Source of the DNA: Candidatus Omnitrophota bacterium
GTDB lineage: Bacteria; Omnitrophota; Gorgyraeia; Duberdicusellales; 4484-171
Assembly: GCA_041652815.1 (NCBI GenBank)
Contig: JBAZGN010000001.1
Span: 317,855 to 381,854 of the forward strand
Length of the DNA stretch: 64,000 nucleotides
Direction of reading: 5' to 3'
The notes under the pieces are model-generated. The model ran no database searches, was not told the origin of the DNA, and saw only the letters and a program-made list of their open reading frames with translations. The position numbers and the translations under genes were made by a program. How positions within the stretch are numbered: position 1 is the stretch's first letter; the number at the start of each line of letters is the position of its first letter. Positions 16,041-53,489 of the stretch are shown in pieces.

Positions 16041-16045
16041 ATCTT

Positions 16046-17809: not shown

Positions 17810-17819
17810 TTTTATGACA

Positions 17820-17948: not shown

Positions 17949-17964
17949 CTTAAAGGGAGGAGTT

Positions 17965-20990: not shown

Positions 20991-21167
20991 CACAAATTAC
21001 CACGATGGTCTTTTACACGGTAGGTACGGTTGGAAAAATATTGTATTTTGTATACCCCTTGCGCCCAAATATCACGTAAATTTTCCTGGCCGTAGGCCGA
21101 GAAAATTTACGTGAAGCGCTTCGGGGTTAAATTTTGCGACTGCGTCGCAAAATTTAAGGAGTAAAAT

Positions 21168-21368
21168 ATGCCAAAGCTAAAAACAAAAAAAGCGTTCGCG
21201 AAAAGAGTAAAGGTTACAAAAAATAAAAAGATCCTTCGTTCAAAAGGAAGCAGGAGGCATCTTTTAAGCGCACGGAGTGAAAAAAGAAAAAGATTTTTAC
21301 GCAAAAAAGCGCTTGTCGCTGGCGTAGACAGAATGGCGGTAAAAAGGTCATTGCCGTATTCATTCTGA
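21168..21368 (+). CDS. rpmI: 50S ribosomal protein L35
   Basis: MPKLKTKKAFAKRVKVT canonical N-terminus, 66 aa. Confidence 0.9.
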   Translation: MPKLKTKKAFAKRVKVTKNKKILRSKGSRRHLLSARSEKRKRFLRKKALVAGVDRMAVKRSLPYSF

Positions 21369-31771: not shown

Positions 31772-31892
31772 TTCTTCAAAAAACACTTGACTAAAAAACC
31801 TTTAATAGTAAAATTTTACTATTAAAATTTAACTAAAGCACCTCAGCTTTTAAGGAATGCCTAGTGTGCGCTTTCCGTGTAAGGAGGACCAT

Positions 31893-33416
31893 ATGAATGT
31901 AAAAGAATTACTTATAAACCAAGCTTCGTTATTTCCTCAAAAAAGCGCTTTTATCTTTGAAGGCAAAGAAACAACCTTTTTGCAACTCAAAGATGCCGCA
32001 TTTAAGATTGCCAATTATTTTACAAGGCAAGGCATAAAAAAGCCAGATAAAATTGCTATTTTTACCCCAAACACTCCGGAAGCTATTTGTGCGCAGATGG
32101 CGGCATATTCTATAGGTGCAACCTTGATACCTTTTGATTACATGCTCACAGAAAATGAGATTATTCATTTCTTAAACCATAGCGAAGCAAAAGTATTAAT
32201 CATGCAGCCGAGAAAAGACATAAACGTATTAAACATCCGGGAAAACTGTTATTCTGTAAAATATATAATAACCTGTAAAGAGCGCCTTGCGGATTGCGAT
32301 TTCCTTGATGATCTTTTGGCAGAGGAAAGTAGTGAAGCTCCGATTCCGCAATCTTTTGATAAAGACCTCGCGGCAATATTTTATACCTCAGGCTCAACTG
32401 GCCACCCTAAGGGCGTAATGCTTAGCTATAAACAGTTTGATAATCCGGTTGATACAATAAACCATTTTTTAGGGGTTTCGGAAAACGATGTTTATTGTAC
32501 CGGCGGCATACCTTTTTCCCATGTGGGCGGGCTTAATTACCTGCTTTTAATGATTCGTTTTGCATCAACCGTTATTGTAATGGGAAGGTTTCATCCGATG
32601 GAATTTTTAAAAAATATAGAAAGATATAAAGTCACGATATTTTGCATAGTGCCTTCGATGTATGTTGCGATTTTATCTCTAAAAGAATACGAGAGGTTTA
32701 ACCTTTCGTCTTTAAGGTATGCAGTTGTTTTTGGTGCGCCTTCTTCGCCTCTTTTGCTTAAGAAATTTCACAGGTCATGCCCTAAAGCAATTGTTTTAAA
32801 CGGTTGGGGTATGACTGAAACCGCCGCTCCGAATACTTTTTCGCCCCCGGACGAGCATAAGATATCCAGCATAGGGAAATTCGGATTTCGTATGCAGGCA
32901 AAGATAATCGATGAGGAAGGAAAATCTTTGTTATATGGAGAACAAGGCGAATTATTAGTCAGCGGAGAAGGTGTTACCGGCGGCTATTACAGAGAGCCGA
33001 CCTTAAGCTCAGATGCTTTTTGGGGAGAAGGGTGGCTGCGTACCGGCGATATTGCTTATTTTGGAAAAGACGGGCTGATATATCTTGCCGGGAGAAAAAA
33101 GGACATGATAAAAGTTGCCGGTGAGATAGTTTTTTCCTCGGAAGTTGAAGAAAAAATACAGCTCTATCCAAAGGTTAAAGAAGTTGCTGTCATAGGTGTT
33201 GCCGATGAATTAAGAGGAGAAGTGCCGAAAGCTTTTATTGTTGCAAAAGAATCTGAAGTGATAGATGCTCAGGAGCTAAGGGATTTTTTAAAAGAGCATC
33301 TGGCTCATTTTAAAATTCCGCATTATTTTGAATTTATAAAAGAACTTCCAAAAAATAGAGTGGGAAAAATCGACAAACAGGCACTTAAGAAAACACAGAT
33401 TAGCACAGATTTGTAA
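31893..33416 (+). CDS. AMP-dependent synthetase/ligase (acyl-CoA or aryl-CoA ligase)
   Basis: YTSGSTGHPKGV AMP-binding motif, C-terminal KIDKQALKK. SD AAGGAGG before ATG 31893. Confidence 0.85.
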   Translation: MNVKELLINQASLFPQKSAFIFEGKETTFLQLKDAAFKIANYFTRQGIKKPDKIAIFTPNTPEAICAQMAAYSIGATLIPFDYMLTENEIIHFLNHSEAKVLIMQPRKDINVLNIRENCYSVKYIITCKERLADCDFLDDLLAEESSEAPIPQSFDKDLAAIFYTSGSTGHPKGVMLSYKQFDNPVDTINHFLGVSENDVYCTGGIPFSHVGGLNYLLLMIRFASTVIVMGRFHPMEFLKNIERYKVTIFCIVPSMYVAILSLKEYERFNLSSLRYAVVFGAPSSPLLLKKFHRSCPKAIVLNGWGMTETAAPNTFSPPDEHKISSIGKFGFRMQAKIIDEEGKSLLYGEQGELLVSGEGVTGGYYREPTLSSDAFWGEGWLRTGDIAYFGKDGLIYLAGRKKDMIKVAGEIVFSSEVEEKIQLYPKVKEVAVIGVADELRGEVPKAFIVAKESEVIDAQELRDFLKEHLAHFKIPHYFEFIKELPKNRVGKIDKQALKKTQISTDL

Positions 33417-33436
33417 GCGAATGAGCACAGATTGCA
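33395..33436. repeat. CACAGAT-family left arm (outer arm around E2)
   Basis: cacagattagcacagatttgtaagcgaatgagcacagattgc. Confidence 0.8.
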
Positions 33437-33438
33437 AT

Positions 33439-33588
33439 AAATAACCAAGTTCCAAGATACAATAACCAAACAATGGCCAATAACCAAATTTCAATAACCA
33501 AACAAAAAAATAACAAATCCGTTTGGTTATTGGGTATTGAATATTGTAATTTGTTTGGAACTTGTATCTTGGTTATTGGTTATTTCTA
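33439..33588. repeat. Compound palindrome, AACCAAACAA family (E2), nested inside CACAGAT arms
   Basis: aaataaccaagttccaagatacaataaccaaacaatggccaataaccaaat...ccgtttggttattgggtattgaatattgtaatttgtttggaacttgtatcttggttattggttatt. Confidence 0.9.
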
Positions 33589-33589
33589 A

Positions 33590-33640
33590 AATATCTGTGG
33601 TTATCTGTGATTTTTTATCTGCGATCATCTGTGTATAAAA
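33590..33640. repeat. CACAGAT-family right arm
   Basis: atatctgtggttatctgtgattttttatctgcgatcatctgtg. Confidence 0.8.
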
Positions 33641-33652
33641 AGGAGTAAAACA

Positions 33653-34381
33653 ATGATGCAAAGAGATGTGCACTTGCACGCAAAAGGATTACTTGAATCT
33701 TTACAATTCCGCCAGGGTGATTTTGGCGAAATCGGCATTATCAGCGGACAAATGCAGCGAGCCCAAAGATGCCTTCAGTATCTGGAAAATCCTGTAAAAA
33801 ATTTTACTTTTTTGGGTTACACTTTCTGGACAGGTATATATAAAGGAAAGAAAGTCACTGTAGGCAATGGCGGTTTCTATGCACCGGATTCAGCGTTTGT
33901 CACGGAAATTTTATGCGTGGGAGGGATTAAAACACTTATCCGGCTTGGCTCCTGTGGGGCAATGTTGCAGGAAATGACTGTTGGAGATTTTGTCGTGGTT
34001 GATAAAGTTATCAGAGGTGATGGAGCCACGCGCTATTACGTCGATGATAATTTTGTTCCGCAAGTGGACAAAGAATTATCCAAAAAGTTAGTAACAATTT
34101 TTGAAAAACAGGGCAAAGTTTATCAGGGTGCCTGCTGGACTACTGATGCAATGTTTAGAGAAACAAAGGAAATCGTAAATCCTTATATAGAAAAAGGCGC
34201 AATTTGTGTGGATATGGTAACCAGCCCGTTTGTTACTGTCGCTAATGTTTATAAAACAAAGGTTGCCGCTATCTTGGTAGTTTCGGATAATCTTTTAACC
34301 GGCGAAATGGGTTTTGCCGATTTTCGTTTGTTCGATGCAGAAGAAAAAATGACAAAAACGGTGTTTGAGATTATTGCCTAA
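33653..34381 (+). CDS. PNP/UDP family-1 nucleoside phosphorylase (candidate MTA / 5'-deoxyadenosine phosphorylase)
   Basis: IRLGSCGAM, TVGNGGFYAPDSA and an ICVDMVTS-like C-terminal motif, characteristic of DeoD/MTAP-type phosphorylases. Confidence 0.65.
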   Translation: MMQRDVHLHAKGLLESLQFRQGDFGEIGIISGQMQRAQRCLQYLENPVKNFTFLGYTFWTGIYKGKKVTVGNGGFYAPDSAFVTEILCVGGIKTLIRLGSCGAMLQEMTVGDFVVVDKVIRGDGATRYYVDDNFVPQVDKELSKKLVTIFEKQGKVYQGACWTTDAMFRETKEIVNPYIEKGAICVDMVTSPFVTVANVYKTKVAAILVVSDNLLTGEMGFADFRLFDAEEKMTKTVFEIIA

Positions 34382-34389
34382 CAAATTTG

Positions 34390-34470
34390 TATCACGTCGC
34401 ACGTATCACGTATCACGTATCACGTCTTTTTAAAACCTGTTACGTGCTACCTGATACGTGGTACGTTAAA
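34390..34470. repeat. Compound imperfect palindrome, GTATCACG x4 facing CGTGCTACCTGATACGTGGTACG
   Basis: Seen directly. It overlaps the false 5' extension of the next ORF. Confidence 0.75.
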
Positions 34471-34482
34471 AGAGAGGTTTAT

Positions 34483-34746
34483 ATGCCCGATATGCAATGG
34501 AGTGCAAAAGCAAAGGAAATTTTTGATAAGGTGATCAGCAATCTTCCGCAATTTCATCGCTCAATTGCCGAAAGATTAGTTAAAGAGTCAGCTGAAGAAA
34601 TTGCTAAAAACAAAAATATGGCTATGGTCGAGGAAAAAGAACTTATAGAGGCATTTTTTAAAGAAATACCCCCGGCGTTTAAAGATATGTTGAAAAGATT
34701 ATTGACTAAGCTGGGTATTGACTACGAAAAATACGGAGTTTCTTGA
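34483..34746 (+). CDS. Small cytoplasmic protein (87 aa) of unknown function
   Basis: SD AGAGAGG before ATG 34483 (MPDMQWSAKAKEIF). Helical. Confidence 0.45.
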   Translation: MPDMQWSAKAKEIFDKVISNLPQFHRSIAERLVKESAEEIAKNKNMAMVEEKELIEAFFKEIPPAFKDMLKRLLTKLGIDYEKYGVS

Positions 34747-34751
34747 TGGCA

Positions 34752-34842
34752 CAGATTAGCACAGATTTTAAAGCGGATGATCACAGATAAAAACCATCTG
34801 CGATCATCTGTGATCTCTTTCTGTGATCATCTGTGTAATAAA
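34752..34842. repeat. Stand-alone CACAGAT-family palindrome (3 CACAGAT words / 3 ATCTGTG words, 7-nt loop)
   Basis: gcacagattagcacagattttaaagcggatgatcacagataaaaaccatctgcgatcatctgtgatctctttctgtgatcatctgtg. Confidence 0.9.
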
Positions 34843-34852
34843 AAAATATAAT

Positions 34853-36469
34853 ATGAAAATAGCGGTTATAGGCCCAGGGGCAATCGGCGGTTTAGTTGCA
34901 GGGTATCTTAAAGAGCAGGGCGAAGACGTATCCCTTGTTGGCACTAAAGATACAGTTGAAGCAATTAATAAGAAAGGCCTGTCAATTTCCGGTGTGCGTG
35001 GGAATGTTAAGGTAAATATTCAGGCGGCAGTTTCTTTAGATAAAAAAGTAGACCTTATAATTTTAACTACCAAAACACAGGATATAGAAAAGGCCTTAAG
35101 GGAAAATAAGCAATATCTGGCAGGCGCAATTATTTTAACCGCGCAAAATGGTGTAGAGGCTGACGAAATTGTTGCGCAATTTGTTCCCAGGGAAAATATT
35201 ATCTCAAGTATTGTAATGTTTGGCGCAACATACCTTAAGCCGGGCGAGATAGTTCATAATTTTGAGAGAAAATGGGTAATCGGCAAGCCTTTCGGCAAAA
35301 ATGATGATTGGGTTAAGCGTGTGTCTATATTGCTTGGCAGGATTTTTCCTATAGAAATAAGTGATGATATCAAAGGAATGAAATGGCTTAAAGTTTTCGC
35401 AAATGCCAATAACTGCATTGCGGGTATTACCGGCAAAAGCATGCAGGAGTGTTTCGCTAATTTGGATTTATGTGAAATAAGTCTCGGTATTTGGCAGGAA
35501 GGCTTGGGCGTGATTAAAAAAGCCGGCATAAAGCTGGTTAATTTGCCTGATTTTACCGTAGAACAAGTAACAAAACTTACATCTTTACCCATAAAAGAAG
35601 CAGCAAAGATATTTTCCGGCATAATGATAAATTTAAGCAAAGAACCTCTATACGGTTCAATCTTGCAAAGCATTAAAAGAGGCAAGGCTTCAGAAATAGA
35701 TTATTTAAACGGAGCATTTGTTAAATTAGCAAGACAATGCGGATATCACACCCCTTTAAATAAAAAATTAACGGAGCTGGTGCATAAAGTTGAAGAGGAG
35801 CATAAATTTTTTACGATAGATGACCTGATTGAAAAAACAAAAAATTTAATCCCGCAACAAAGCTGCGATGATAGTGGCAAGGTAAACACTCCTTTTCCAA
35901 AACTTAAGCTTACCGTGGTAAAGGTTGAGGGAGATTGTTATCACGGCTATAAACAAGGCGATGAAATAGTTTTGGAAGATTTTACCCATCCGCCAAAGCA
36001 TTTTTGTTTGGGCTTAGCCCATGCTTTGTTTCCCGTAATTTACGCTTTAAGTTTTGGCGCAAAATTTGGTTTTCGCGATAACCAGCGTTCGCTTTTAGTA
36101 ACCTGCCCGGACGGCGGAAAACTTGAATTTAAAGCAGAAATCTTCGATAAGGAAGGAAAAATCGAAGTAATAGAAAAAGACCCAAATCATAAAGGGCCAA
36201 ACCCTAAAGAAATGGTTTTGGAGGTAGTGCAATCAAAAGGCAAGTGCGCTTACGGCTACAAATTAGGCGACAGAATAGAAGTTAAAGGGCTAAAGTGCCC
36301 GGAAGGATTTTGCGGCGCAGCATACCATTGTGCATTTCCCGCGCTTTTCGCACTTAACTTCGGCGCAAAATTCTTCTTTATGGATGACCCGGATGGTATT
36401 AATACCGTAACCTGCCCGGATGGCGGGAATATTGTGTTTAAGGTGAGCCGCAAAAAAGTCAGTCTATAG
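34853..36469 (+). CDS. Ketopantoate-reductase-like (ApbA/PanE) NAD(P)-binding enzyme fused to a tandemly duplicated Cys-rich ~95-aa domain (TIGR04076-like)
   Basis: N-terminus MKIAVIGPGAIGG with an ApbA_C signature (GKASEIDYLNGAFVKLARQCGYHTPLN). The C-terminus has two repeats sharing G.C.[HY]GYK.GD ... FC ... FP.[IL][YF]AL.FGA ... VTCPDGG ... FK. Confidence 0.7.
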   Translation: MKIAVIGPGAIGGLVAGYLKEQGEDVSLVGTKDTVEAINKKGLSISGVRGNVKVNIQAAVSLDKKVDLIILTTKTQDIEKALRENKQYLAGAIILTAQNGVEADEIVAQFVPRENIISSIVMFGATYLKPGEIVHNFERKWVIGKPFGKNDDWVKRVSILLGRIFPIEISDDIKGMKWLKVFANANNCIAGITGKSMQECFANLDLCEISLGIWQEGLGVIKKAGIKLVNLPDFTVEQVTKLTSLPIKEAAKIFSGIMINLSKEPLYGSILQSIKRGKASEIDYLNGAFVKLARQCGYHTPLNKKLTELVHKVEEEHKFFTIDDLIEKTKNLIPQQSCDDSGKVNTPFPKLKLTVVKVEGDCYHGYKQGDEIVLEDFTHPPKHFCLGLAHALFPVIYALSFGAKFGFRDNQRSLLVTCPDGGKLEFKAEIFDKEGKIEVIEKDPNHKGPNPKEMVLEVVQSKGKCAYGYKLGDRIEVKGLKCPEGFCGAAYHCAFPALFALNFGAKFFFMDDPDGINTVTCPDGGNIVFKVSRKKVSL

Positions 36470-36530
36470 TCGACAGTCGATAGTCCATAGATTAAAACTG
36501 TGGACTGTAGATTATGGACTGTGGACTAAA
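36458..36530. repeat. Compound palindrome, GGACTATGGACT family (H1)
   Basis: agtctatagtcgacagtcgatagtccatagattaaaactgtggactgtagattatggactgtggact. The paralog is at 60299. Confidence 0.85.
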
Positions 36531-36545
36531 ATAGGAGATAGAAGA

Positions 36546-37793
36546 ATGAGACGAGTAGTCATAACCGGCATTGGCGTAATCTGTGCAGCTGGCGAGGATA
36601 AAAACACTTTTTACGATAATATTGTCGCCGGTAAACCCTTTATTGAAAGAGTAGAGAATTTTGATGTAAGTTTATTTGTGTCAAAAATAGCTTCACAGGA
36701 TTTAGGCTTTGACCCGCTCAAATTTGGCATAAAAGACCACCAGCGTATGGATAGATATGTCCAATTTGGTATTGCCGCGGCAAAACAGGCAGTTGAAGAC
36801 AGCCACATTGATTTTAATAAAATAAACAGAAAAAAATGCGGTGTAATTTTAGCAAACGCAATTTGCGGCACGCGTTTTATGGAGGAGGAATTCCTTCTTG
36901 TAACTGACTGGGGAAAGAGGCCAATCGATCCGCGTAAAGGCCGGCCTTATCTTTATGATGCGGCAATGTTTAATACGCCAAGCGCAGAAATCGGAGCAAT
37001 TTATCATACGCAAGGGCTTAATTGCACGGTTTCTACCGGTTGCACTGCTGCTACAGATTCTTTAGGATTTTCTTTTGAACTTATCCGCGAAGGCAGGCAG
37101 GATATAATTATTGCCGGTGGTACTGAAGCGCCGGTTTGCCCGATTACTTTTGGAGCTTTTGACGTGGTAAATGTTTTGGCAAAAAATAACGATGAACCGC
37201 ATAAAGCCAGCCGGCCTTTCGATAATAAAAGAAACGGTTTTGTAATTTCTGAAGGCGCGGGCGTTGTAGTGCTTGAAGAATTAGAGCACGCAAAAAAGCG
37301 CGGCGCGCATATTTACGGAGAATTGGTTGGTTACGGTACAAGCTGTAATGCCTTTCATATGACGGATTTACCTGAGGACGGCGAAGCGATGGAGCGCTGC
37401 ATCAAAGATGCGATGAAAGACGCAGGAGTTAAAAATGAAGATATAGACTATATAAATACGCATGGCTCATCAACCAGGCAAAATGACGTTTTTGAGACAA
37501 ATGCTTACAAGGCAGTGTTCGGTGATTATGCTTACAAAATTCCGATAAGCTCTATAAAATCAATGATTGGCCATCCTTTGGCGGCAGCCAATGCTGTAGA
37601 GAGTGTTTTATGCGCGATGATTTTTGAAAAAGGATATTTGCCCCCCACGATAAATCAGGAAGAGCCAGACCCAAAATGCGATTTGGATTATATTCCAAAC
37701 GTGAAAAGACAATATATGCCTAATTACATATTAAAAACAAGCAGCGGATTTTCCGGAATACATTCGTCTATTATATTTAAGAAATATAAATAG
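36546..37793 (+). CDS. Beta-ketoacyl synthase, KS-alpha (FabF-like, catalytically complete)
   Basis: Cys in STGCTAATDS, His in INTHGSSTRQND, His in SMIGHPLAAANAVE. The stop codon TAG lies inside the terminus of repeat K2. Confidence 0.85.
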   Translation: MRRVVITGIGVICAAGEDKNTFYDNIVAGKPFIERVENFDVSLFVSKIASQDLGFDPLKFGIKDHQRMDRYVQFGIAAAKQAVEDSHIDFNKINRKKCGVILANAICGTRFMEEEFLLVTDWGKRPIDPRKGRPYLYDAAMFNTPSAEIGAIYHTQGLNCTVSTGCTAATDSLGFSFELIREGRQDIIIAGGTEAPVCPITFGAFDVVNVLAKNNDEPHKASRPFDNKRNGFVISEGAGVVVLEELEHAKKRGAHIYGELVGYGTSCNAFHMTDLPEDGEAMERCIKDAMKDAGVKNEDIDYINTHGSSTRQNDVFETNAYKAVFGDYAYKIPISSIKSMIGHPLAAANAVESVLCAMIFEKGYLPPTINQEEPDPKCDLDYIPNVKRQYMPNYILKTSSGFSGIHSSIIFKKYK

Positions 37794-37883
37794 AAGCGGA
37801 TATCCGCGGATAGCTACGCGGATAAACGCCAGCGAATTTCTGTGCGTCTATCCGCGTTTAAATCCGCGGCAATCCGCTTCTAT
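37790..37883. repeat. Compound palindrome, CCGCGGATA family (K2), termini ATAGAAGCGGAT / ATCCGCTTCTAT
   Basis: atagaagcggatatccgcggatagctacgcggataaacgcc...gtctatccgcgtttaaatccgcggcaatccgcttctat. Confidence 0.9.
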
Positions 37884-37897
37884 AGTAAGGAGCTTAA

Positions 37898-39130
37898 ATG
37901 AAAGAACGTGTAGCAATAACAGGCGTGGGAGTTGTTTCACCAGCCGGTTTAAAAAAAGAAACTTTTTGGGCAAATTTGAAACGAGGCGACTCATTTATAG
38001 ATGAAGTTACGCGCTTTGACGCATCGCTTTACCCGTCTCGCATAGCCGGCCAGGTTCATGAGTTGGATCATTATTCGCATTTGCCAAGCCGCCTGGTAAA
38101 AAAGATTGATGTGTTTTCTCATATGGCGCTTGTTGCAACCGAGCAGGCTTTGCAAGATGCAAAGATAGATTTAAATAACGTTGATAAAAAACGTGTAGGC
38201 GTTTTTATGGGTAATGCTATCGGCGGCTGGCTTTTTGCCGAAACCGAACTACGCGATATGTATATTGAAGGCAGAGAAGGTGTATCTCCCTATATGGCTT
38301 CTGCCTGGTTTCCAGCAGCACCCCAAGGGCAAATTACAATTTTCTATGGATTTAAGGGCTACAGTAAAACTGTGGTAGCTGACAAGGCTTCTTCTGCGCT
38401 TGCTCTGTGGTATGCGGCGAAAAATATAAGCGAAGGCAAAAATGATTACGTTGTCGCCGGAGGAATGGAAGCGCCAATTACGCCATACGCGCTTTTAAGT
38501 TCCAATTCCTGCGGCCAACTGTCCAAAAATAACCTTAACCCCAGGAAAGCTTATAAGCCTTATGATTTATATCGAGACGGTTTTGTTTTAGGCGAGGGCT
38601 CCGGAATAGTAAATTTAGAAAAAGAAGAGCATGCCAAAAAAAGAGGGGCACACATTTATGGATTTTTAAAAGGCGTTGGTTTTTCCTCCGATGGTTATCA
38701 TTATGAACGTTATAGCCCGAATTCAGAAAGTTTTGAATATGCAATAGAAGAGTGTTTAAAAGACGCAGGCTGGGCAAAAAAAGAAGTAGATTATATTTGT
38801 TTGGATGCAGAAGCGACAACTATGGGCGATTATCTTGAAACGCAAGCGTTAAAAAATGTGTTCGGAAAGGAACTAAAAAATATTTCACTTAGTGCGCCAA
38901 AGAGTATGTATGGAAACCTTTTAGGTGCACAAACGGCACTGGATTTGATATCAACATTGTATTCAATGAGTAACAACCTGGTCTTCCCGACAATTAATTA
39001 CGAGATGAACGACCCTTATTGCGATTTGGATTATACGCCAAATGTTGCAAGGGAAAGAAAAATAAATAAAGCCCTGCTTCTTGCTCGCGGAAGAGGTGGG
39101 ATAAATGTGGTATTAGCTATTGAAAAGTAA
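37898..39130 (+). CDS. KS-beta / chain-length-factor-like ketosynthase paralog (all three catalytic residues substituted)
   Basis: It aligns with KS-alpha throughout. The active-site Cys position reads VVADKASSAL, and both His positions are replaced (LDAEATTMGD and MYGNLLGAQTA). Confidence 0.75.
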   Translation: MKERVAITGVGVVSPAGLKKETFWANLKRGDSFIDEVTRFDASLYPSRIAGQVHELDHYSHLPSRLVKKIDVFSHMALVATEQALQDAKIDLNNVDKKRVGVFMGNAIGGWLFAETELRDMYIEGREGVSPYMASAWFPAAPQGQITIFYGFKGYSKTVVADKASSALALWYAAKNISEGKNDYVVAGGMEAPITPYALLSSNSCGQLSKNNLNPRKAYKPYDLYRDGFVLGEGSGIVNLEKEEHAKKRGAHIYGFLKGVGFSSDGYHYERYSPNSESFEYAIEECLKDAGWAKKEVDYICLDAEATTMGDYLETQALKNVFGKELKNISLSAPKSMYGNLLGAQTALDLISTLYSMSNNLVFPTINYEMNDPYCDLDYTPNVARERKINKALLLARGRGGINVVLAIEK

Positions 39131-39133
39131 ATT

Positions 39134-39240
39134 AGGTTACGAACGTTACGAAAGTTACGCAGGTTACGAAGGTTACAATAACCTTAAGTGTTTCAAGGGT
39201 AACCTTCGTAACTTCCCGTAACATCCGTAACCTTCGTAAC
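39134..39240. repeat. Compound palindrome, GGTTACGAAGG family (A3)
   Basis: ttaggttacgaacgttacgaaagttacgcaggttacgaaggttacaa...cttcccgtaacatccgtaaccttcgtaac. Confidence 0.9.
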
Positions 39241-39260
39241 ATACAATAAGGAGGTTTTAA

Positions 39261-39494
39261 ATGGCATTAAAAGAAGACGTTGTGAATGCGATTGCCGACA
39301 TCTTGGATGTAAAAGCTGATGAATTGAAAGATAGCGAAAAATTATACGATTCAGTTGGAGTAGATTCAACAGAAATGGTTGAACTTTGCGTTTCTTTGGG
39401 GAAAAAGTTCGGCGTAAAAATTGCCACAAATGAAATAACAAAATCTTCAACACCGCTTGAAATAACGGCGTTGATTGAAAAGAAGAAGCAATAA
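39261..39494 (+). CDS. Acyl carrier protein
   Basis: 77 aa. The phosphopantetheine-attachment Ser sits in GVDSTEMVEL. SD AAGGAGG. Confidence 0.8.
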   Translation: MALKEDVVNAIADILDVKADELKDSEKLYDSVGVDSTEMVELCVSLGKKFGVKIATNEITKSSTPLEITALIEKKKQ

Positions 39495-39495
39495 T

Positions 39496-39558
39496 TAGCT
39501 GTCAGCCATCAGCTTTCAGCTATCAGCTGAAGACTGACGACTGAAGGCTGAAAGCTTA
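39496..39558. repeat. Compound palindrome, CAGCTGAAAGCTG family (B4)
   Basis: agctgtcagccatcagctttcagctatcagctgaagactgacgactgaaggctgaaagct. Confidence 0.85.
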
Positions 39559-39563
39559 TAAAT

Positions 39564-40367
39564 ATGCAAATAATCGATTTAAGCCTACCAATTGACGATC
39601 GTGCCTTTGAAGTGCATCACGTTGAAATTGAGCGCGTATCTCATAAGGCAGGAGTTGAAAAATTTAACCGCGTTTTAATGGGGAAAACCTTAAAAGGCAA
39701 GCTCCAATATATATTAGGTAAGCGTATTGTTAAAAAAGAAGACTTGCCGAATGAAGAGTTTTTATCTTTGGAAATCGTGCATTCACCGGTTCATATCGGC
39801 ACACATTTAGATTATTCTTTCCATTACGGTTCAAAGTCAGAAGGCCGCGCCTCTAAAACTGCGGAAGAAATTCCTCTTGAATGGTGCTATCAAAATGGCG
39901 TTAAGCTCGATGTTTCGCATAAAAAATCAAACGAAGCGATAACGGCGGCAGATTTAGAAAACGCTTTAAAGAAAATAAACTATACGTTAAAGCCCTTAGA
40001 TATTGTTTTATTATATACAGGAGCTGATAAATTATACGGAGGCCCAAAATATTTTAGCGATTACCCGGGCGTAGACATTTCGGCGATAGATTATCTTTTG
40101 GATAAAGGTATTAAAATCTTTGGCGTAGACACTATGGGCATAGACCGGCCATATAGATTTATGCTTAAAGAATTTTTGGAAACCAAGGACACGAAAAAAT
40201 TATATCCAGCACATTTCTATGGAAGAAAACGCGAATTTATTCATATAGAACGATTAGCAAATTTAGATAAATTACCTGACTTTGGATTTAAGATTATTTG
40301 TTTCCCCGTAAAAATTAAGTGTACCGGGGCTGCCTGGGCAAGAGCAGTTGGGATAATTAAAAGCTAA
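39564..40367 (+). CDS. Cyclase-family protein (PF04199; kynurenine-formamidase / polyketide-cyclase fold)
   Basis: The HIGTHLDYSFH motif matches the HxGTHxDxPxH metal site, plus GVDTMGIDRP. Confidence 0.7.
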   Translation: MQIIDLSLPIDDRAFEVHHVEIERVSHKAGVEKFNRVLMGKTLKGKLQYILGKRIVKKEDLPNEEFLSLEIVHSPVHIGTHLDYSFHYGSKSEGRASKTAEEIPLEWCYQNGVKLDVSHKKSNEAITAADLENALKKINYTLKPLDIVLLYTGADKLYGGPKYFSDYPGVDISAIDYLLDKGIKIFGVDTMGIDRPYRFMLKEFLETKDTKKLYPAHFYGRKREFIHIERLANLDKLPDFGFKIICFPVKIKCTGAAWARAVGIIKS

Positions 40368-40424
40368 CGCAGATTTACGCAGATAATTTACCTAAGATCA
40401 CCTGCGTTAGGAAAAGGAGGAAGA

Positions 40425-41204
40425 ATGAAGAAGGGAATGAATTTTTTAAGTATAACTAAAATTTCGTTCTACTTATTTTGTTTGCTAATTCTTTTTGTTT
40501 CTTGTTCCAGCAAGCCAGCATATACAATTAGGAAATTTCCAAATGGTAAGGAAATCAAAGTCTTAAATATAGGAACAATGTATAACCCATCTTTAAATGG
40601 CCCCGCTTTGTTATTTAACTATGAAACGGATGCCAATTTTGAGGATAGAGCAGCTATAGATAAAGAAGTGCAAGAAATCTGGAATTATTTTCGTCTTGAT
40701 GCAGAAGAGCAAGGTTTTAAGAATGCAATAATCAAAGTGAACTCAACGTACAATAAAGTATTTTTTATGCGACTCAATAAAACTCGTTGGTTTTTCTTCA
40801 AAAAAGACAGAAATAATGATTGGCAATTAGGAGATAGCAGTATTTCTAAAAAAGAACTTTTTGATCAAGGAGTAACCTTAATTAAGGGAAAAAATTACGA
40901 TGAGGCTATAGCCAAATTTACTAAAGCAATAGAAATGGATCCTGGACTCTATGTTGCTTATAATGGGCGAGGGGCTGCTTATTGTGAAAAAGGAAATTTT
41001 AACCTTGCTATAGTTGATTTGAATAAAGCAATAGAAATTAATCCAAATTATGCCCCGCCTTACAATAATCGTGCGGCTATATATCTTTCCAAAAAAGAAT
41101 ACGATAAAGCTTGGATAGATGTGCATAAGGCAGAGTCTTTAAGCTATAAAATTAATCCAGAACTTCTTGAAAAACTTAAGAAAGAATCCGGCCGAGAAAA
41201 ATAA
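40425..41204 (+). CDS. Lipoprotein with C-terminal TPR repeats
   Basis: Signal peptide plus lipobox LFVSCSS. Three TPR units (AIAKFTKAIEMDP, LAIVDLNKAIEINP). Confidence 0.65.
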   Translation: MKKGMNFLSITKISFYLFCLLILFVSCSSKPAYTIRKFPNGKEIKVLNIGTMYNPSLNGPALLFNYETDANFEDRAAIDKEVQEIWNYFRLDAEEQGFKNAIIKVNSTYNKVFFMRLNKTRWFFFKKDRNNDWQLGDSSISKKELFDQGVTLIKGKNYDEAIAKFTKAIEMDPGLYVAYNGRGAAYCEKGNFNLAIVDLNKAIEINPNYAPPYNNRAAIYLSKKEYDKAWIDVHKAESLSYKINPELLEKLKKESGREK

Positions 41205-41283
41205 TTTTAGTTTCTATAAGTTTTTATTCGTGGTAATTCGTCTTTAATCCGTGGCCATTCGTGTCAAAAGAAAGGAGGTTAAA

Positions 41284-41724
41284 ATGGGACATACAGTTAA
41301 TTCAATTATAATCAATGCGCCTTACGAGAAAATTTTTGATATCTCTAATGACATTGAACGTTGGACAGAATTATTTGGTGATGAATATAAAGAAGCAACC
41401 GTGGAAAAGAAAGAAGGCAACAAAATAACTTTTAAACTTATGGATGATGAAGGTAGAACCTGGAAATCATGGCGGCTTTTATTCAAAGATAAGAATTTTG
41501 CCTATGCCGAGCGCGAAGAGCCGAAATTTCCTTTTAAGTTTATGAAAATCATCTGGCTTTATATACCAAGGCCAAGCGGCATTGAAATGGTTTGGATCCA
41601 GCATTTTGAAATGGATGAAAAAGCTAAATTTAATGACGAGCAGGTAGAAGGTTTCATCAATAAGCATTCTAAAGATAATTTGAAGATATTTAAGGACGTA
41701 ATTGAGAAAGAAGCAGGTAGATAA
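41284..41724 (+). CDS. SRPBCC (Bet v1-like) polyketide cyclase/dehydrase-family protein
   Basis: The HTVNSIIINAPYEKIFDISNDIERWTELF N-terminus matches the Polyketide_cyc2 signature. SD AAAGGAGG before ATG 41284. Confidence 0.65.
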   Translation: MGHTVNSIIINAPYEKIFDISNDIERWTELFGDEYKEATVEKKEGNKITFKLMDDEGRTWKSWRLLFKDKNFAYAEREEPKFPFKFMKIIWLYIPRPSGIEMVWIQHFEMDEKAKFNDEQVEGFINKHSKDNLKIFKDVIEKEAGR

Positions 41725-41725
41725 A

Positions 41726-41850
41726 ACGATTACAGTTGCGTCAAGCGGTTGCGGTTGCGCCGCTCGTCACGGTTGCGTCTAACGTAAGACGTAACCGCAT
41801 GACGAAACGAGTCGCGTAACCGATAGACGCAAAACGTAACCCCATAGATA
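41726..41850. repeat. Compound palindrome, GCGGTTGCG family (F3)
   Basis: gttgcgtcaagcggttgcggttgcgccgctcgtcacggttgcgtctaacgtaagacgtaaccgcatgacgaaacgagtcgcgtaaccgatagacgcaaaacgtaacc. Confidence 0.85.
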
Positions 41851-41868
41851 ACGAGATAAGTTCAATTT

Positions 41869-42990
41869 ATGAATAAGCTAACTTTTGTTATTCTCTGTTT
41901 GGAGGGCGCAATTCTTTCTTTTAATGTTGCTGCGGCAGCTGCGCTTATCCCCTCTGTTGCAACAGATTTTGGAGTTTCCGAGTTTATTGCCGGAAGAATT
42001 GTCTGGCTTTATATGATTCCTTACGGCTTTGCCGCTCTCCTTTACGGCCCCTTGGTGCGGGCGTTTGACGCGAAAAAGATTGAGCTAATTTGCCTTTTAT
42101 CTTTTTCCGCGGCGAATCTATTAGCTGCTTTTTCAAAAAATATCGCGATGCTCTTTGCGGCGAGATTCTTTATGGGAGTTTTTGGCGCATCTGTTATACC
42201 TCTTGCTTTAATTTTAATAGCGCAGTCATTTGCCAGCGAAAAAAGAGGAAAAATAGTTGGGCTATTTTTTGCCTCCACATTCATCGCTTCGCTTCTCGGG
42301 TTATTTTTAAGCGGTATTTTACCCTGGCGCTTGATTTTCTTGTTGCCGGCCATTGCCGGATTTTTGCTTTTGCCTTTAATGTATTTTTATCTGCCGCGTT
42401 TTGCGCCGGAAAATAAAAAATTTGCCATCAATTATATAGAGCCGTTTAAAGATAAGGTTATATTGTATATGTTTACCTATATATTTATTATAAGCTTACT
42501 TTACCACGGCCTGCAGCAATGGCTCTCGGTTTATTTCTCTACCAAATATAGCCTGGGGCAGTTTGCAATCAGCATGCTTATTACTTTAACCAGTTTAAGC
42601 GGCATATTTGGAGAAACCATCGGTGGAATGCTTGCCGATAAAATTGGCAGGATAAAGACCGTTAATTTAGGAATAATTTTAATGATTATAAGTGTATTAT
42701 TTCTTATTTTTAAAATGCCGGTTTTTATACTTGGTTTGATTATGATTATCTGGGGGCTGGGTTGGACATTTAACCATGCGGGAATCTCTACAATGCTTAC
42801 GGATCTGCCTAAAAAATTTTTACATGAAGCCGCAAGCTTAAATTCAAGTGTACGTTTTGTCTCCGGCGGTATTGGAGTGGCTGCTTCAGGGTTGATTATG
42901 CAAAAAAGTTTTATTGCCGGATTTATGTTATTTGGTGGCTGTTTAATTGCATTATTACTTTGTACGAAATATCTGGTTATTAAAATATAA
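41869..42990 (+). CDS. MFS transporter (putative product exporter)
   Basis: 373 aa with about 12 TM segments and MFS motifs (FFMGVFGASVIPLAL). Confidence 0.75.
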   Translation: MNKLTFVILCLEGAILSFNVAAAAALIPSVATDFGVSEFIAGRIVWLYMIPYGFAALLYGPLVRAFDAKKIELICLLSFSAANLLAAFSKNIAMLFAARFFMGVFGASVIPLALILIAQSFASEKRGKIVGLFFASTFIASLLGLFLSGILPWRLIFLLPAIAGFLLLPLMYFYLPRFAPENKKFAINYIEPFKDKVILYMFTYIFIISLLYHGLQQWLSVYFSTKYSLGQFAISMLITLTSLSGIFGETIGGMLADKIGRIKTVNLGIILMIISVLFLIFKMPVFILGLIMIIWGLGWTFNHAGISTMLTDLPKKFLHEAASLNSSVRFVSGGIGVAASGLIMQKSFIAGFMLFGGCLIALLLCTKYLVIKI

Positions 42991-42994
42991 ACTT

Positions 42995-43131
42995 AGGTTA
43001 CGAACGTTAGTGAGGTTACGCAGGTTACGAAGGTTACAACAAACCTTCGATATTTGAAATGTAACATTCGTAACTTCCCGTAACTTAATTCTTCCGTCGA
43101 AGGTGGAAGAATTAACGTAACCTTCGTAACT
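42995..43131. repeat. Compound palindrome, GGTTACGAAGG family (A4), with an extra internal hairpin cttccgtcgaaggtggaag
   Basis: Seen directly. Confidence 0.9.
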
Positions 43132-43151
43132 TATAATTTAAGGAGGAGAGA

Positions 43152-43928
43152 ATGAGTAGCGAGCTTAAAGGTAAAACTGCAATTGTAACCGGCGCAAGCC
43201 GCGGGATAGGCAAGGCTCTTGCTTGTGTGGCAGCAAGTTTAGGCGCGAATGTAGCTATCGCAGCAAGAGGGGAAGGGCCGCTTAAAGAAACCGCTGCGGA
43301 GATAGAGAAAAAATATAAAGTTAAGGTTCTGGCCGTTCCCTGCGATGTTACAAAACTGGAAGATCTAGAAAACTTAGTAAATAAAACAAAAGAAAAATTT
43401 GGACAGATAGATATTTTGATAAATAATGCAGGAGTTTCTAGCCAATATCCTTTTGAAAAACAGCCGATTGAAGATTTTGAGCGTCTCGCCCATACAAACT
43501 ATTTAGGTTATGTGCGCTTGATTCGTTTGGTGATAAACGATATGATAAATAGAAAATCTGGGGCAATAATCAATATGGTTTCCGGCTCAACGCTTTGTGA
43601 CCCCCTTCCGAGAAATTTTATTGTTTATAGCTCATTGAAAGTAGGGCTTCGCGCTTTTTCTAAAGCTCTGTTTTGGGAAATGCGCGACCACGGTATAAAA
43701 GTTACTTCGCTTTTACCGGGAGTCACAGATACCGATTTAACAGGTAAATTGGAAGAAATAACAGCAAACGCCTCGCGCTTGATGACCACAGAGGCTATTG
43801 AAAATGCAGTGAGGTTCGCTTTAACTGTTCCGGCGAATGTCTGTCCGCTTGAGATAGCAGTTATTAATCAGCAAACGCCATGGACAAAGCCGGTGATACC
43901 GTATAAGCAGGATCATCCTAATAAGTAG
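43152..43928 (+). CDS. SDR-family ketoreductase (FabG/ActIII-like 3-oxoacyl-ACP reductase)
   Basis: TGASRGIGKA cofactor motif, NNAG, catalytic YSSLK. Confidence 0.85.
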   Translation: MSSELKGKTAIVTGASRGIGKALACVAASLGANVAIAARGEGPLKETAAEIEKKYKVKVLAVPCDVTKLEDLENLVNKTKEKFGQIDILINNAGVSSQYPFEKQPIEDFERLAHTNYLGYVRLIRLVINDMINRKSGAIINMVSGSTLCDPLPRNFIVYSSLKVGLRAFSKALFWEMRDHGIKVTSLLPGVTDTDLTGKLEEITANASRLMTTEAIENAVRFALTVPANVCPLEIAVINQQTPWTKPVIPYKQDHPNK

Positions 43929-43963
43929 AGAGTAGCAAGTAAAGAGTAGAGAGAGGAGGTATC

Positions 43964-44362
43964 ATGAAAGAAAAAAACGTCAGTATTTTAATTGGTTTAG
44001 GAATAGGCGGTGTTATTAGTTTTATAATGTTGATTATATTTATTTTCATTATTATTTTTATGAACCAAAGGATACAATCACGAGAGCAGCTTATCCAGAA
44101 GCTTATTAGAGAAGGACAACTTGTTGAGGCTGTGGTTGCCAAAGGAGATATTCCAAAAGAAACTATCATCACTAGTGAAGTTGTTAAAATAAAGATAGTT
44201 TCACTCAAGACTCTTCAGCCGGGAGATTTAACCTCTTTAGATTCCGTGATGGGCAAGAAAACAACCAGAGAGATATTTAAGGATCAACATGTTAATGCGG
44301 ATTTTCTAAAAATTTCAGAGAAAATAGACAGTGGTAGTGTGAGTAAACAGGAACAGCCGTAA
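43964..44362 (+). CDS. N-terminally membrane-anchored protein of unknown function (132 aa)
   Basis: One TM helix, then a beta-rich soluble domain. Confidence 0.4.
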   Translation: MKEKNVSILIGLGIGGVISFIMLIIFIFIIIFMNQRIQSREQLIQKLIREGQLVEAVVAKGDIPKETIITSEVVKIKIVSLKTLQPGDLTSLDSVMGKKTTREIFKDQHVNADFLKISEKIDSGSVSKQEQP

Positions 44363-44944: not shown

Positions 44945-46402
44945 ATGAAGATACTGTTCGTCATGCCGAAAATCGGCGCTTGGGCAACCCATGGAAATCA
45001 TTTTGCACCTAACCAGTTATATGCCCAGTGGGGAGCATATATCCGTGAGAAAGGTTATGACAATCTTGAGGTTTTAGACGCAACTGTCTTGGGTATTCCC
45101 ATTGAACACTTGGCTGAGAAAGTTAAAGAAAAAAATCCTGACGTGGTTGTCTTGGGCGATATGATTCATTGCTCGGTAGGCTTTGGCATAATCTGGCATT
45201 TTAACCAGGCTGCCGCAAGAATAAAACAGGTTTTACCAAAAACGAAAATAATTATGGGCGGGCTTTGGTATTCAGCCTTACCCGTTCAGACCTTGGAGGA
45301 TAATCCCGCGATAGATTATGTGGTTATGGGCGAAGAAGAATCCTTTTATGACCTTATCGATGCAATCGATAAAAATAAAAATATGAAAGATGTTGCGGGG
45401 GTAACCAGCCGCATAGATGGTAAGCCGGTAATGGGCCCGCATAAGCCGCTATTGCAGGATTTGGATAAATTGCCGCTTCCGGCTTATGATTTATTTCCTA
45501 TGGATAAATACATAGGGCATACTTTCTGGAAACCGTTTGTTGAAATGATAACGTCCCGTGGCTGCCCCTCAGCTTGTACTTTCTGTTATGAATGGGACCA
45601 GTATGACCCGCGCAGCCCGCAGGATTTTTTAACCTGGCGCGCAAAATCACCGGAGCGCGTTATTGAAGAGCTCGAGCTTTTAAAGAAAATGGGCACAAAA
45701 GTTGTGGTTATACAGGATGATAATTTTAATGTTAATCCCGAGAGAGTTGAAAAATTTTGTAACTTAAAGAAACAAAAAAACAATCCGATTAAATGGGTTT
45801 CTTTAGGAAGAGCTGTTGACTGGATTAATTGCGAAAAAATTTTGCCTCTAATGAAAGAAACCGGATTATTTATGGGGGTATTTGGAATTGAAGTGACCAC
45901 GCCGGAAGAGCTTAAAAAAATCGCCAAAGGAATAACCATTGATCAGATTAAAAAAACAATCGATATTTTACGCGCCCAGAATATCGCAATTGTCGCTGAT
46001 ATTATGATGGGCTTTGATGACGATACGGAATATTCCATAAAGCAGAGATTTGAATTTACCGACGAAGTTGACCCGGATATTCTTTGGGTTGGTTACGTTA
46101 CCCCTGCTCCTAATTCACCTATCTGGAGGCAAAGGGTAAAACGCGGGGAAATAGACCTTAAAAAAATTGATTTTCTTAAGTGGGATTTTTTACACCCGGT
46201 TATGCCGACAAAGCATTTAACCTTGGAAGATTACGGAAGGCTTGGCGCCTGGTGTATGCGCGAATTTTTCTCAAAACCGGGGCGCATTCAGAGAATTATG
46301 ACCAGTAATTTCGACCCGCTGGCAAAACTCTGCTTCGAGGATGTTATGCGCGGAGTTTCAAAGTGGGAAGCAGGAGCGGTTAAGGGGGAAAAGCATATTT
46401 AA
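44945..46402 (+). CDS. Class B (cobalamin-binding) radical SAM enzyme
   Basis: N-terminal B12-binding-like domain. CPSACTFC is a CxxxCxxC motif. Confidence 0.8.
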   Translation: MKILFVMPKIGAWATHGNHFAPNQLYAQWGAYIREKGYDNLEVLDATVLGIPIEHLAEKVKEKNPDVVVLGDMIHCSVGFGIIWHFNQAAARIKQVLPKTKIIMGGLWYSALPVQTLEDNPAIDYVVMGEEESFYDLIDAIDKNKNMKDVAGVTSRIDGKPVMGPHKPLLQDLDKLPLPAYDLFPMDKYIGHTFWKPFVEMITSRGCPSACTFCYEWDQYDPRSPQDFLTWRAKSPERVIEELELLKKMGTKVVVIQDDNFNVNPERVEKFCNLKKQKNNPIKWVSLGRAVDWINCEKILPLMKETGLFMGVFGIEVTTPEELKKIAKGITIDQIKKTIDILRAQNIAIVADIMMGFDDDTEYSIKQRFEFTDEVDPDILWVGYVTPAPNSPIWRQRVKRGEIDLKKIDFLKWDFLHPVMPTKHLTLEDYGRLGAWCMREFFSKPGRIQRIMTSNFDPLAKLCFEDVMRGVSKWEAGAVKGEKHI

Positions 46403-48176: not shown

Positions 48177-48186
48177 TATTAAGCCA

Positions 48187-52567: not shown

Positions 52568-52586
52568 TTTTTAATTGGAGGTGCGT

Positions 52587-53372: not shown

Positions 53373-53489
53373 AGAATAGAGAGGCAATTAATTTCTATAA
53401 ATTTCAATGGCAATCGAAATTGGTATAAATTAAGGAATTAGTAGAAATTGATTGTGTAATGAATCTCTCCACCTAATAAATATAAAATA

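Follow-up and report, generated by a model that had tools for sequence, protein, structure and literature searches.

Identification of the cluster

We analysed a gene cluster in a 64,000-nucleotide stretch of DNA (the window) from a Candidatus Omnitrophota bacterium (contig JBAZGN010000001.1 of assembly GCA_041652815.1). Sequence comparison confirmed the region 31857-56009 as a predicted aromatic type II polyketide gene cluster, not a fatty-acid locus. Its genes very probably specify a polyketide synthase (PKS) of the anaerobe type ('ancestral', clostrubin-like) that would make an exported, anaerobically tailored polyphenol or quinone. The enzymology is of a known kind, that of non-actinomycete aromatic type II PKSs. 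The novelty lies in how far the cluster extends and in the finding that many species of a candidate phylum with small genomes keep it in synteny. Also new are its relation to the clostridial type, the recurrence of ketopantoate-reductase-family (KPR) and TIGR04076 components, and an embedded module that resembles the dihydroxyacetone phosphate (DHAP) shunt and includes an SCP2-fused aldolase.

Domains were called at Pfam gathering thresholds in open reading frames (ORFs), and NCBIfam/TIGR cut-offs were also applied. The cluster genes described below all lie on the + strand. A preliminary description of this DNA had listed genes from an acyl-CoA ligase to a short-chain dehydrogenase/reductase (SDR); we found them as an unbroken series of co-directional ORFs across the 31893-44362 region, and every gene domain named there passed its Pfam gathering score. 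That description took 31893-44362 to be the whole cluster, but 44362 is the end of a non-conserved ORF with a SAF domain. Comparison with 80 related loci by tblastn, together with clustering of their ORFs, placed the conserved cluster at approximately 31857-56009, about twice as long.

The ketosynthase pair and carrier protein

The first ketosynthase, KS1 (36546-37793), is the predicted catalytic KS-alpha, with Cys166, His306 and His343 invariant across 76 retrieved orthologs. The second, KS2 (37898-39130), has Lys, Asp and Asn at the triad positions, which were always [Lys/Arg]-Asp-Asn across 79 retrieved orthologs. This agrees with the earlier proposal of a catalytically complete ketosynthase paired with a catalytically inactive chain-length factor (CLF, KS-beta) in which the Cys and both His are replaced. 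A stand-alone acyl carrier protein (ACP; 39261-39494, PP-binding 42.5 bits) is encoded 3' of the pair. Its Asp-Ser motif, with the Ser to which phosphopantetheine would be attached, was kept in 30/30 loci.

When KS1 was compared with the PDB, the top match was AntD (6smo_B, 365 bits), the KS-alpha of the Photorhabdus anthraquinone PKS; B. subtilis FabF (349 bits) and the actinorhodin KS (334 bits) were also matched. KS1 carries an STGC motif common to ClrA and Streptomyces KS. Its best plasmid matches were KS genes of 43-46% identity, and the three plasmid neighbourhoods that we inspected (Azospirillum, Bacillus and Streptomyces) were aromatic type II PKS clusters. For KS2, on PDB matches alone, FabF proteins (295 bits) ranked above the actinorhodin CLF (219 bits), and the CLF AntE was not among the top matches. 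As KS2 scored better against FabF than against CLF, a search of 1.84 billion 50%-identity representatives was run. When KS2, the TIGR04076 didomain and the aldolase served as queries, Omnitrophota orthologs filled the results, and other phyla were reached only via these representatives. The Omnitrophota KS2 family was found as one full-length representative, plus a few fragments. The next single-domain relatives were approximately 43% identical, all of them without the catalytic Cys and with a D-[R/K]-A-S motif. The nearest named relatives outside the phylum came from Clostridium beijerinckii and C. puniceum (43% identity), both of which produce clostrubin, followed by Ktedonobacter and Archangium.

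A neighbour-joining tree (412 columns, 200 bootstraps) was built from the KS2 relatives, the plasmid KS/CLF pairs and E. coli FabF and FabB. KS1 fell inside the KS-alpha clade (98%), as sister to the Bacillus and C. beijerinckii KS (88%). All Cys-less proteins including KS2 formed one clade (100%) with an annotated Streptomyces 'ketosynthase chain-length factor'; its other members were Streptomyces, Azospirillum, Bacillus and Clostridium CLFs. E. coli FabF and FabB lay outside both clades. The aromatic type II PKS reading given in the preliminary description is thus supported by the placement of both ketosynthases, by the aromatase/cyclases described below and by neighbours that are not fatty-acid genes.

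Neither ketosynthase reached the cut-off of the fabF equivalog (TIGR03150, 493.75 bits; KS1 453 bits, KS2 381 bits), and KS1 passed the looser subfamily NF005589 (440 bits vs 387). No FabZ/FabA, FabD, FabH or FabI domain was found among the scanned window ORFs of at least 100 aa. We rejected a housekeeping fatty acid synthase on the grounds of the tree placement, the sub-threshold fabF scores and the lack of fab neighbours. A plain aryl-polyene cluster, which had been argued against from the start, is likewise disfavoured, with no dehydratase among the cluster ORFs and two aromatic-polyketide cyclases present. The conserved ORF families of the 80 loci also contained no dehydratase domain.

Two aromatic-polyketide cyclases

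Both cyclase assignments of the preliminary description held at HMM thresholds. The first cyclase (39564-40367, 106.6 bits) is a predicted metal-dependent PF04199 enzyme of the OxyN/DpsY type with an intact HxGTHxDxxxH motif. Residues H77, G79, H81, D83 and H87 were invariant in 74/74 sequences. Its identity was 45% to the counterpart in a C. beijerinckii type II PKS locus (L083, see below) and 44% to that on the Bacillus type II PKS plasmid.

The second (41251-41724) belongs to the SRPBCC proteins and is a predicted TcmN-type single-domain aromatase/cyclase, passing Polyketide_cyc2 with 30.0 bits against a cut-off of 27.4. Its significant PDB matches were all aromatase/cyclases (TcmN with 87 bits and E 9e-24, WhiE, ZhuI and 2kf2; E <=2.2e-20), and the sole other match, BexL, was weak (E 0.4).

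Spread and conservation in Omnitrophota

Close homologs of KS2 were all named Candidatus Omnitrophota/Omnitrophica. By scanning one genome per GTDB species we obtained 100 loci encoding a KS2 relative and kept 80, which were 54-97% identical. Their labels were Omnitrophota (55), 'uncultured Planctomycetia/Planctomycetales' (22), 'bacterium' (2) and 'Methanosarcinales archaeon' (1). Orthologous clusters, whose existence in related metagenome bins had been posed as a question, are therefore present in 80 Omnitrophota loci, and the window does not hold an isolated accessory cluster.

Gene content was counted in 30 loci with full +-10 kb flanks by tblastn of the window proteins and ORF clustering. 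KS1, KS2 and both cyclases were present in 30/30 loci and the ACP in 29/30. The B12 radical S-adenosylmethionine (SAM) enzyme, the small DUF2621-like protein, KPR/TIGR04076, the major facilitator superfamily (MFS) transporter and the SDR were each found in 28/30, the nucleoside phosphorylase (PNP) in 27/30, and the MtnA-like isomerase and the Amidohydro_2 protein in 26/30. Lower counts were obtained for the class II aldolase (22/30), the ligase (21/30), the class IV aminotransferase (13/30) and the aldehyde dehydrogenase (ALDH; 12/30, often more than 10 kb distant). The flanking genes PheT, Dus and orf236 were found in 1-3 of the 30 (PheT and Dus in no more than 2), so the housekeeping surroundings vary from locus to locus.

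Three gene orders were observed. Order A, that of the window, runs ligase, PNP, small protein, KPR, KS1, KS2, ACP, PF04199 cyclase, SRPBCC, MFS, SDR, radical SAM enzyme, Amidohydro_2, (class IV aminotransferase), MtnA, aldolase, ALDH. Order B starts with PNP, MtnA, aldolase and ALDH, followed by the radical SAM enzyme, small protein, KPR, KS1 and so on. In order C the small protein, KPR, KS1, KS2, radical SAM enzyme and ACP come first, and Amidohydro_2, PNP, MtnA, aldolase and ALDH stand at the far end.

In the three loci with synteny into the flanks (L001, L009 and L010), KS1 and KS2 were 87-97% identical to those of the window as against 62-90% for PheT and Dus, which points to vertical descent under strong purifying selection. 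The cluster appears to be vertically inherited in the sampled Omnitrophota species, and its conservation is stronger than that of a tRNA synthetase subunit (PheT). As a rule, type II PKSs occur as accessory clusters of actinomycetes, scattered from strain to strain; this one persists, its gene order still recognisable, in at least 80 species belonging to an uncultured phylum. These bacteria are ultra-small and for the most part anaerobic, may depend on a host, and have genomes of 1.2-1.8 Mb. The gene order and the conservation across at least 80 species suggest that the product matters for their lifestyle, be it in oxygen tolerance, host attack or electron transfer. The cluster also offers a compact, concrete target for heterologous expression.

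The contig labelled 'Methanosarcinales archaeon' (JAIWAR010000044.1, locus L030) carries Omnitrophota-type genes from the ligase to SRPBCC, with a KS2 of 80% identity. It is probably a misbinned Omnitrophota contig, which bears on published suggestions of archaeal type II PKS genes.

Comparison with known clusters

The C. beijerinckii locus L083, a putative clostrubin (clr) cluster, encodes KS, CLF, a 175-aa protein, PF04199, SRPBCC, a phosphopantetheinyl transferase (PPTase), CMD, DUF362, DUF169, a 96-aa protein, PPTase, Amidohydro_2, ACP, two hydrolases, a ketosynthase III (KSIII) and an ABC transporter. Its likeness to the window cluster follows nearly the same order, with identities of 45% for KS, 43% for CLF, 45% for PF04199, 40% for SRPBCC and 28% for Amidohydro_2, and the ACP is also shared. 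The TIGR04076 repeats matched both of its small unannotated proteins (50% over 70 aa for the one just after CLF, and 34%), and its CLF has Arg at the Cys position, a residue that Omnitrophota CLFs also show there. C. beijerinckii, C. puniceum and the Omnitrophota hosts are strict anaerobes, and neither cluster contains an oxygenase.

The two clusters also differ. L083 alone has its own PPTases, a KSIII starter module, alpha/beta hydrolases, CMD, DUF362, DUF169 and an ABC exporter. Pfam detected no KSIII module, paired alpha/beta hydrolases, DUF362, DUF169 or CMD among the scanned ORFs of the window cluster. KPR, the SDR, the BchE-like B12 radical SAM enzyme with its small partner, the ANL-family ligase, the MFS transporter and the DHAP-shunt-like module distinguish Omnitrophota from L083. 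The L083-type cluster was found in two clostridial species, whereas at least 80 species share the Omnitrophota cluster in synteny.

An 'ancestral' non-actinomycete type II PKS architecture, KS-CLF-ACP-TcmN-OxyN, has been proposed, and the Photorhabdus ant (AQ-256) and Dendrosporobacter den (dendrubins) clusters share it (PMC7693217). Our comparison bears on that proposal. In ant and den the TcmN protein is duplicated (didomain), whereas that of Omnitrophota is single-domain, like the clostridial type, and no radical SAM, KPR or TIGR04076 genes are described for either cluster. The ant cluster reportedly also has a CoA ligase (AntG) and a ketoreductase.

A cluster from a metagenome-assembled genome (MAG) of 57% GC (GCA_021812725.1, locus L089) showed the same core order. 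Identities ranged overall from 34 to 65%: KPR 42%, the two TIGR04076 repeats 50% and 65%, KS 57%, CLF 43%, PF04199 48% and SRPBCC 50%, with the ACP in place and Amidohydro_2 (37%) further along. It has FMN_red and two FAD amine-oxidase-like enzymes in place of the radical SAM enzyme, SDR and MFS transporter, no salvage-like module within 11 kb, and Ile-Ala-Asn at the CLF triad positions. On domain content, the recurring unit is KPR, two TIGR04076 repeats, KS, CLF, ACP, OxyN-type and TcmN-type cyclases, and Amidohydro_2. This core is complete in L089, and most of it is found in L083. In a further metagenomic cluster (L088), which has KS, CLF (Arg-Ala-Asn), PF04199 and SRPBCC, we noticed a B12-radical-SAM-like gene at the end (20519-21242). 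This hints that B12 radical SAM tailoring may be common in type II PKS clusters of anaerobes. The families that recur in such clusters (TIGR04076, KPR, and the BchE-like radical SAM enzyme with its partner) may reveal how aromatic polyketides are tailored without oxygen.

In previous work, a 2023 catalogue of type II PKSs listed 'Candidatus Omnitrophica' KS-CLF pairs without analysing them and has a single mention of the phylum (PMC10132072). The product had been called probably novel; that needs qualifying, given these catalogued pairs and a core related to clostrubin-type clusters. antiSMASH 'ladderane' calls have been made in Omnitrophota MAGs (PMC9902471) and may concern this locus. The Omnitrophota genome surveys that we consulted leave the cluster unmentioned, and we found no literature linking Velamenicoccus to polyketides.

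Tailoring, transport and ligase genes

The gene at 34823-36469 encodes a putative KPR-type NAD(P)H reductase (ApbA, ApbA_C) fused to two Cys-rich TIGR04076 repeats (approximately 35855-36466; 100.2 bits vs a cut-off of 33). The fusion was seen only in the lineage of the window, with KPR and the TIGR04076 didomain encoded by separate genes in 44 loci. Across the phylum the didomain kept approximately 80% identity, and in each repeat three Cys and two His are invariant. The predicted fold of the didomain gave only a weak match, to XdhC-like domains. Genes for such repeats adjoin KS/CLF genes in Omnitrophota, in the C. beijerinckii locus (11260-11787 and 15656-15946 of L083) and in the unrelated MAG (1179-1851 of L089).

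The enzyme encoded at 44945-46402 combines Radical_SAM and B12-binding domains. Its nearest curated families were BchE (199 bits against the TIGR02026 cut-off of 481) and HpnJ (146 bits), both far below cut-off, so 'BchE-like' denotes the nearest family only. The CxxxCxxC motif was kept in 54/54 sequences, and the median identity across the 28 loci was 76%. From its domains, the enzyme may carry out a methylation, or an oxygen-independent oxidation or cyclisation. A small helical protein related to DUF2621 (33.8 bits) and PCP_red (19.7 bits, below cut-off) is encoded at 34387/34480-34746; the true start is probably the ATG at 34480, giving approximately 88 aa. This gene tracks with the radical SAM gene. 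It lies directly 3' of it in gene order B, and a second copy was found 3' of the radical SAM gene in L037, L043 and L047. The small protein is possibly a partner of the radical SAM enzyme.

The Amidohydro_2 protein (46465-47343, 63 bits) is of the ACMSD/LigW-like, non-oxidative decarboxylase type, and its PDB matches were ACMSD, 5-carboxyvanillate decarboxylase and iso-orotate decarboxylase (IDCase). The family also holds decarboxylases of polyketide salicylate-type acids, such as 6-methylsalicylate decarboxylase. We infer that the protein would strip a terminal carboxylate. The SDR (43152-43928, adh_short 175.8 bits) is a candidate ketoreductase, and its PDB matches were generic. The MFS transporter (41869-42990, MFS_1 175.6 bits) is probably an exporter; its best NCBIfam matches were the EmrB and Bcr/CflA efflux subfamilies, both below cut-off. 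At the 5' end of the cluster, the AMP-forming acyl/aryl ligase of the ANL family (31857-33416; AMP-binding 265.7 bits, plus AMP-binding_C) gave generic PDB matches (4CL, FadD and MenE). It possibly loads the starter unit or assists the ACP.

A nucleoside module within the cluster

Four further genes form a salvage-like module. The PNP/MTAP-like nucleoside phosphorylase (33653-34381, PNP_UDP_1 121.4 bits) is of the hexameric type, with the Sulfolobus 5'-methylthioadenosine phosphorylase 1jds as best PDB match (95 bits) and every NCBIfam equivalog below cut-off. A putative 5-(thio/deoxy)ribose-1-phosphate isomerase (50628-51569), an IF-2B protein, passed the MtnA subfamily (TIGR00524, 214 bits vs 185.85) and fell short of the equivalog TIGR00512 (241 bits vs 279). 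The class II aldolase (51566-52567, Aldolase_II 113.6 bits), assigned at family level, carries an extra C-terminal SCP2 lipid-carrier domain (24.6 bits vs a cut-off of 21.3). This fusion is conserved, with a median length of 333 aa and PF00596 plus PF02036 precomputed in most homologs; a lipid-binding SCP2 domain is unexpected on an aldolase acting on small 5-deoxy sugars. In gene orders B and C, and for a large part of order A, the gene for the NAD(P)+-dependent ALDH (54519-56009, Aldedh 562 bits) comes after that for the aldolase.

In the DHAP shunt, a disposal route for 5'-deoxyadenosine and 5'-methylthioadenosine (MTA), the enzyme families follow the same sequence of phosphorylase, MtnA-type isomerase and class II aldolase, the last of which yields DHAP and an aldehyde (PMC10986504, PMC12632272). 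The window module differs from it in that the aldolase is SCP2-fused, an ALDH and an ANL ligase come after, and the whole is embedded in a PKS cluster. A salvage of this type fits the cluster because the cluster holds a radical SAM enzyme. Though the module switches sides, it stays attached to the PKS genes across the three gene orders.

Proposed pathway

In the pathway that we propose from the predicted gene functions, the KS1/KS2 heterodimer would assemble an ACP-bound poly-beta-ketone out of malonyl units, with malonyl transferase and phosphopantetheinyl transferase borrowed from primary metabolism and the ligase supplying the starter unit or helping to load it. The two cyclases would then fold and aromatise the chain, and the ACMSD-like Amidohydro_2 enzyme would remove the terminal carboxylate. 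KPR-TIGR04076 and the SDR are predicted to perform reductions, and the BchE-like B12 radical SAM enzyme with its small helical partner may carry out an O2-independent C-methylation or oxidation, after which the MFS pump would export the product. The MTAP-like phosphorylase, MtnA-like isomerase, class II aldolase and ALDH would form a DHAP shunt clearing the 5'-deoxyadenosine/MTA released by the radical SAM enzyme.

Several points weigh against this proposal. The tree was computed from distances and includes few characterised references; bootstraps within the CLF clade were 4-60%. The roles given to KPR, TIGR04076, the radical SAM enzyme, the ligase and the SCP2-aldolase are deduced from family membership. 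No actinorhodin-type C9 ketoreductase was among the best 60 PDB matches of the SDR, and the 'SDR ketoreductase' of the preliminary description is better described as a generic SDR. The ligase was not found within the +-10 kb flanks in gene order C. The identification of L083 as the putative clostrubin cluster follows from the producing species and the placement of ClrB (PMC7693217). GTDB R232 holds more than 700 Omnitrophota species (10.64898/2026.06.07.730766), so the 100 pattern-matched loci set a lower bound and do not speak for universality.

Alternative interpretations

The product could instead be a core physiological molecule, such as a low-potential polyketide quinone acting as electron shuttle or an oxygen-protective polyphenol, with the BchE-like radical SAM enzyme as O2-independent counterpart of an anthrone oxygenase. 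We regard this as possible, though unlikely. The linkage is kept across at least 80 species with reduced genomes, in sequences more conserved than PheT, and the cluster has no oxygenase, as against four ABM monooxygenases in the cluster of the aerobic Azospirillum. The best family match of the radical SAM enzyme is an anaerobic cyclase, BchE, but it lies far under the cut-off (199 bits vs 481). Quinone biosynthesis is reported to be patchy in the phylum (PMC10066038); the cluster, however, contains no enzyme for a prenyl or alkyl tail, its conserved efflux-type MFS pump suggests export and not a membrane cofactor, and the loci were seen in part of the phylum (100 pattern-matched vs more than 700 species).

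A bolder version is improbable in our estimate. The cluster would make a lineage-characteristic, physiologically central, redox-active aromatic polyketide (an anthraquinone- or naphthoquinone-like electron shuttle or oxygen shield) without O2. The BchE-like radical SAM enzyme would replace anthrone oxygenases, TIGR04076/KPR would count as a conserved part of anaerobic type II PKSs not recognised before, and the salvage-like module would feed in a fragment of a SAM by-product or of an adenosylated intermediate.

It is a little more doubtful still that PNP, the MtnA-like isomerase, the aldolase-SCP2 fusion, ALDH and the ligase form a feeder line, which would convert a 5'-deoxynucleoside, or a hydrophobic substrate to which the radical SAM enzyme has added an adenosyl group, through an aldehyde and an acid into the PKS starter. 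The chemistry would be continuous, from nucleoside to sugar-1-phosphate, ketose-1-phosphate, aldehyde plus DHAP, acid and acyl-AMP/CoA. The module adjoins the PKS through three rearrangements, and the conserved SCP2 lipid-binding domain of the aldolase would be needless in a small-sugar shunt. The CLF has Lys/Arg at the Cys position; actinorhodin-type CLFs have Gln there, which is linked to decarboxylative priming. Against this, we know of no feeder route of such a kind, B12-type radical SAM enzymes are typically methyltransferases and not adenosyl-transferring, and the ligase was linked in 21/30 loci, not always. Salvage of by-products, co-located with the radical SAM enzyme, gives a more economical account of the linkage.

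We consider it very improbable that a FabF-like pair makes a reduced acyl product here, such as an aryl polyene, a ladderane-like lipid or another specialised lipid. Both KS score high against fabF models (453 and 381 bits) and the best PDB matches of KS2 are FabF proteins, but both remain below the equivalog cut-off and the tree groups the pair with KS-alpha and CLF. Dehydratase and enoyl reductase are both absent from the cluster, and the TcmN-type aromatase and the OxyN-type cyclase occur together in 30/30 loci. Ladderane-type biosynthetic gene clusters have been called in Omnitrophota (PMC9902471), and B12 radical SAM enzymes and an SDR are present; the ladderane radical SAM family TIGR04072, however, gave 76-99 bits against a cut-off of 360.

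The weakest alternative, which we take to be extremely improbable, is a catabolic cluster for anoxic degradation of the phloroglucinol or resorcylate type (MFS import, Amidohydro_2 decarboxylation, SDR ring reduction, PF04199 retro-Claisen ring opening, then ligase and KS thiolysis), which draws on the decarboxylation of hydroxybenzoates by Amidohydro_2 enzymes and on the dihydrophloroglucinol cyclohydrolase of the PF04199 family, working with an SDR phloroglucinol reductase (PMC10470551). The PF04199 protein is, however, 44-45% identical to cyclases within biosynthetic type II PKS clusters, neither a BKACE-family lyase nor a thiolase is present, and such a role is hard to reconcile with the host-dependent lifestyle predicted for the phylum. 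Nor are a KS/CLF/ACP trio or a TcmN-type aromatase known to us from catabolism. A kynurenine-pathway reading (PF04199 formamidase, ACMSD and ALDH) was also dropped, as the PF04199 protein is orthologous to PKS-cluster cyclases; that pathway, in addition, needs O2-dependent steps.

Inserted genes and other features of the window

A few genes within the cluster boundaries do not belong to its conserved set. The tetratricopeptide repeat (TPR) lipoprotein (40425-41204, + strand, lipobox-like FVSC), which the preliminary description counted as a member, does exist as a gene but is an insert found in 2/80 loci. It was outside the conserved set, as were the SAF-domain ORF, a second TPR protein, a CarboxypepD_reg-domain protein, a second B12 radical SAM enzyme, an LsrF-like aldolase and a Zn-dependent alcohol dehydrogenase, because each was found in 0-2 of 30 loci (0-3 of 80). 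The CarboxypepD_reg protein and the second radical SAM enzyme are inserted at 47361-49650. The nearest family of the latter is ApyD, an enzyme of ribosomally synthesised and post-translationally modified peptides (172 bits, below cut-off), and the two, which are not in related loci, may be a separate small system. The LsrF-like aldolase of the DeoC family (NF006081, 362 bits vs a cut-off of 297; recurring in 3/80 loci) and the alcohol dehydrogenase lie at 52575-54518, between the aldolase-SCP2 gene and the ALDH gene. The class IV aminotransferase/ADC-lyase-like protein (49608-50459, + strand, Aminotran_4 171.7 bits) is loosely associated with the cluster.

Promoter and terminator counts in the window were not above those of shuffled sequence. 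The best promoter-like site on the + strand lies at 31787-31814, just 5' of the ligase gene, and is weak evidence. At E <=1e-4, Pfam matched neither the ORF at 1849-3348 (499 aa) nor the one at 16046-17809 (587 aa). An Rfam scan of the whole window returned a single tRNA and found neither B12 nor SAM riboswitches. The region 10738-18423 holds genes for V/A-type ATPase subunits (E, A, B, D and proteolipid), and the tRNA gene follows at 18509-18582.

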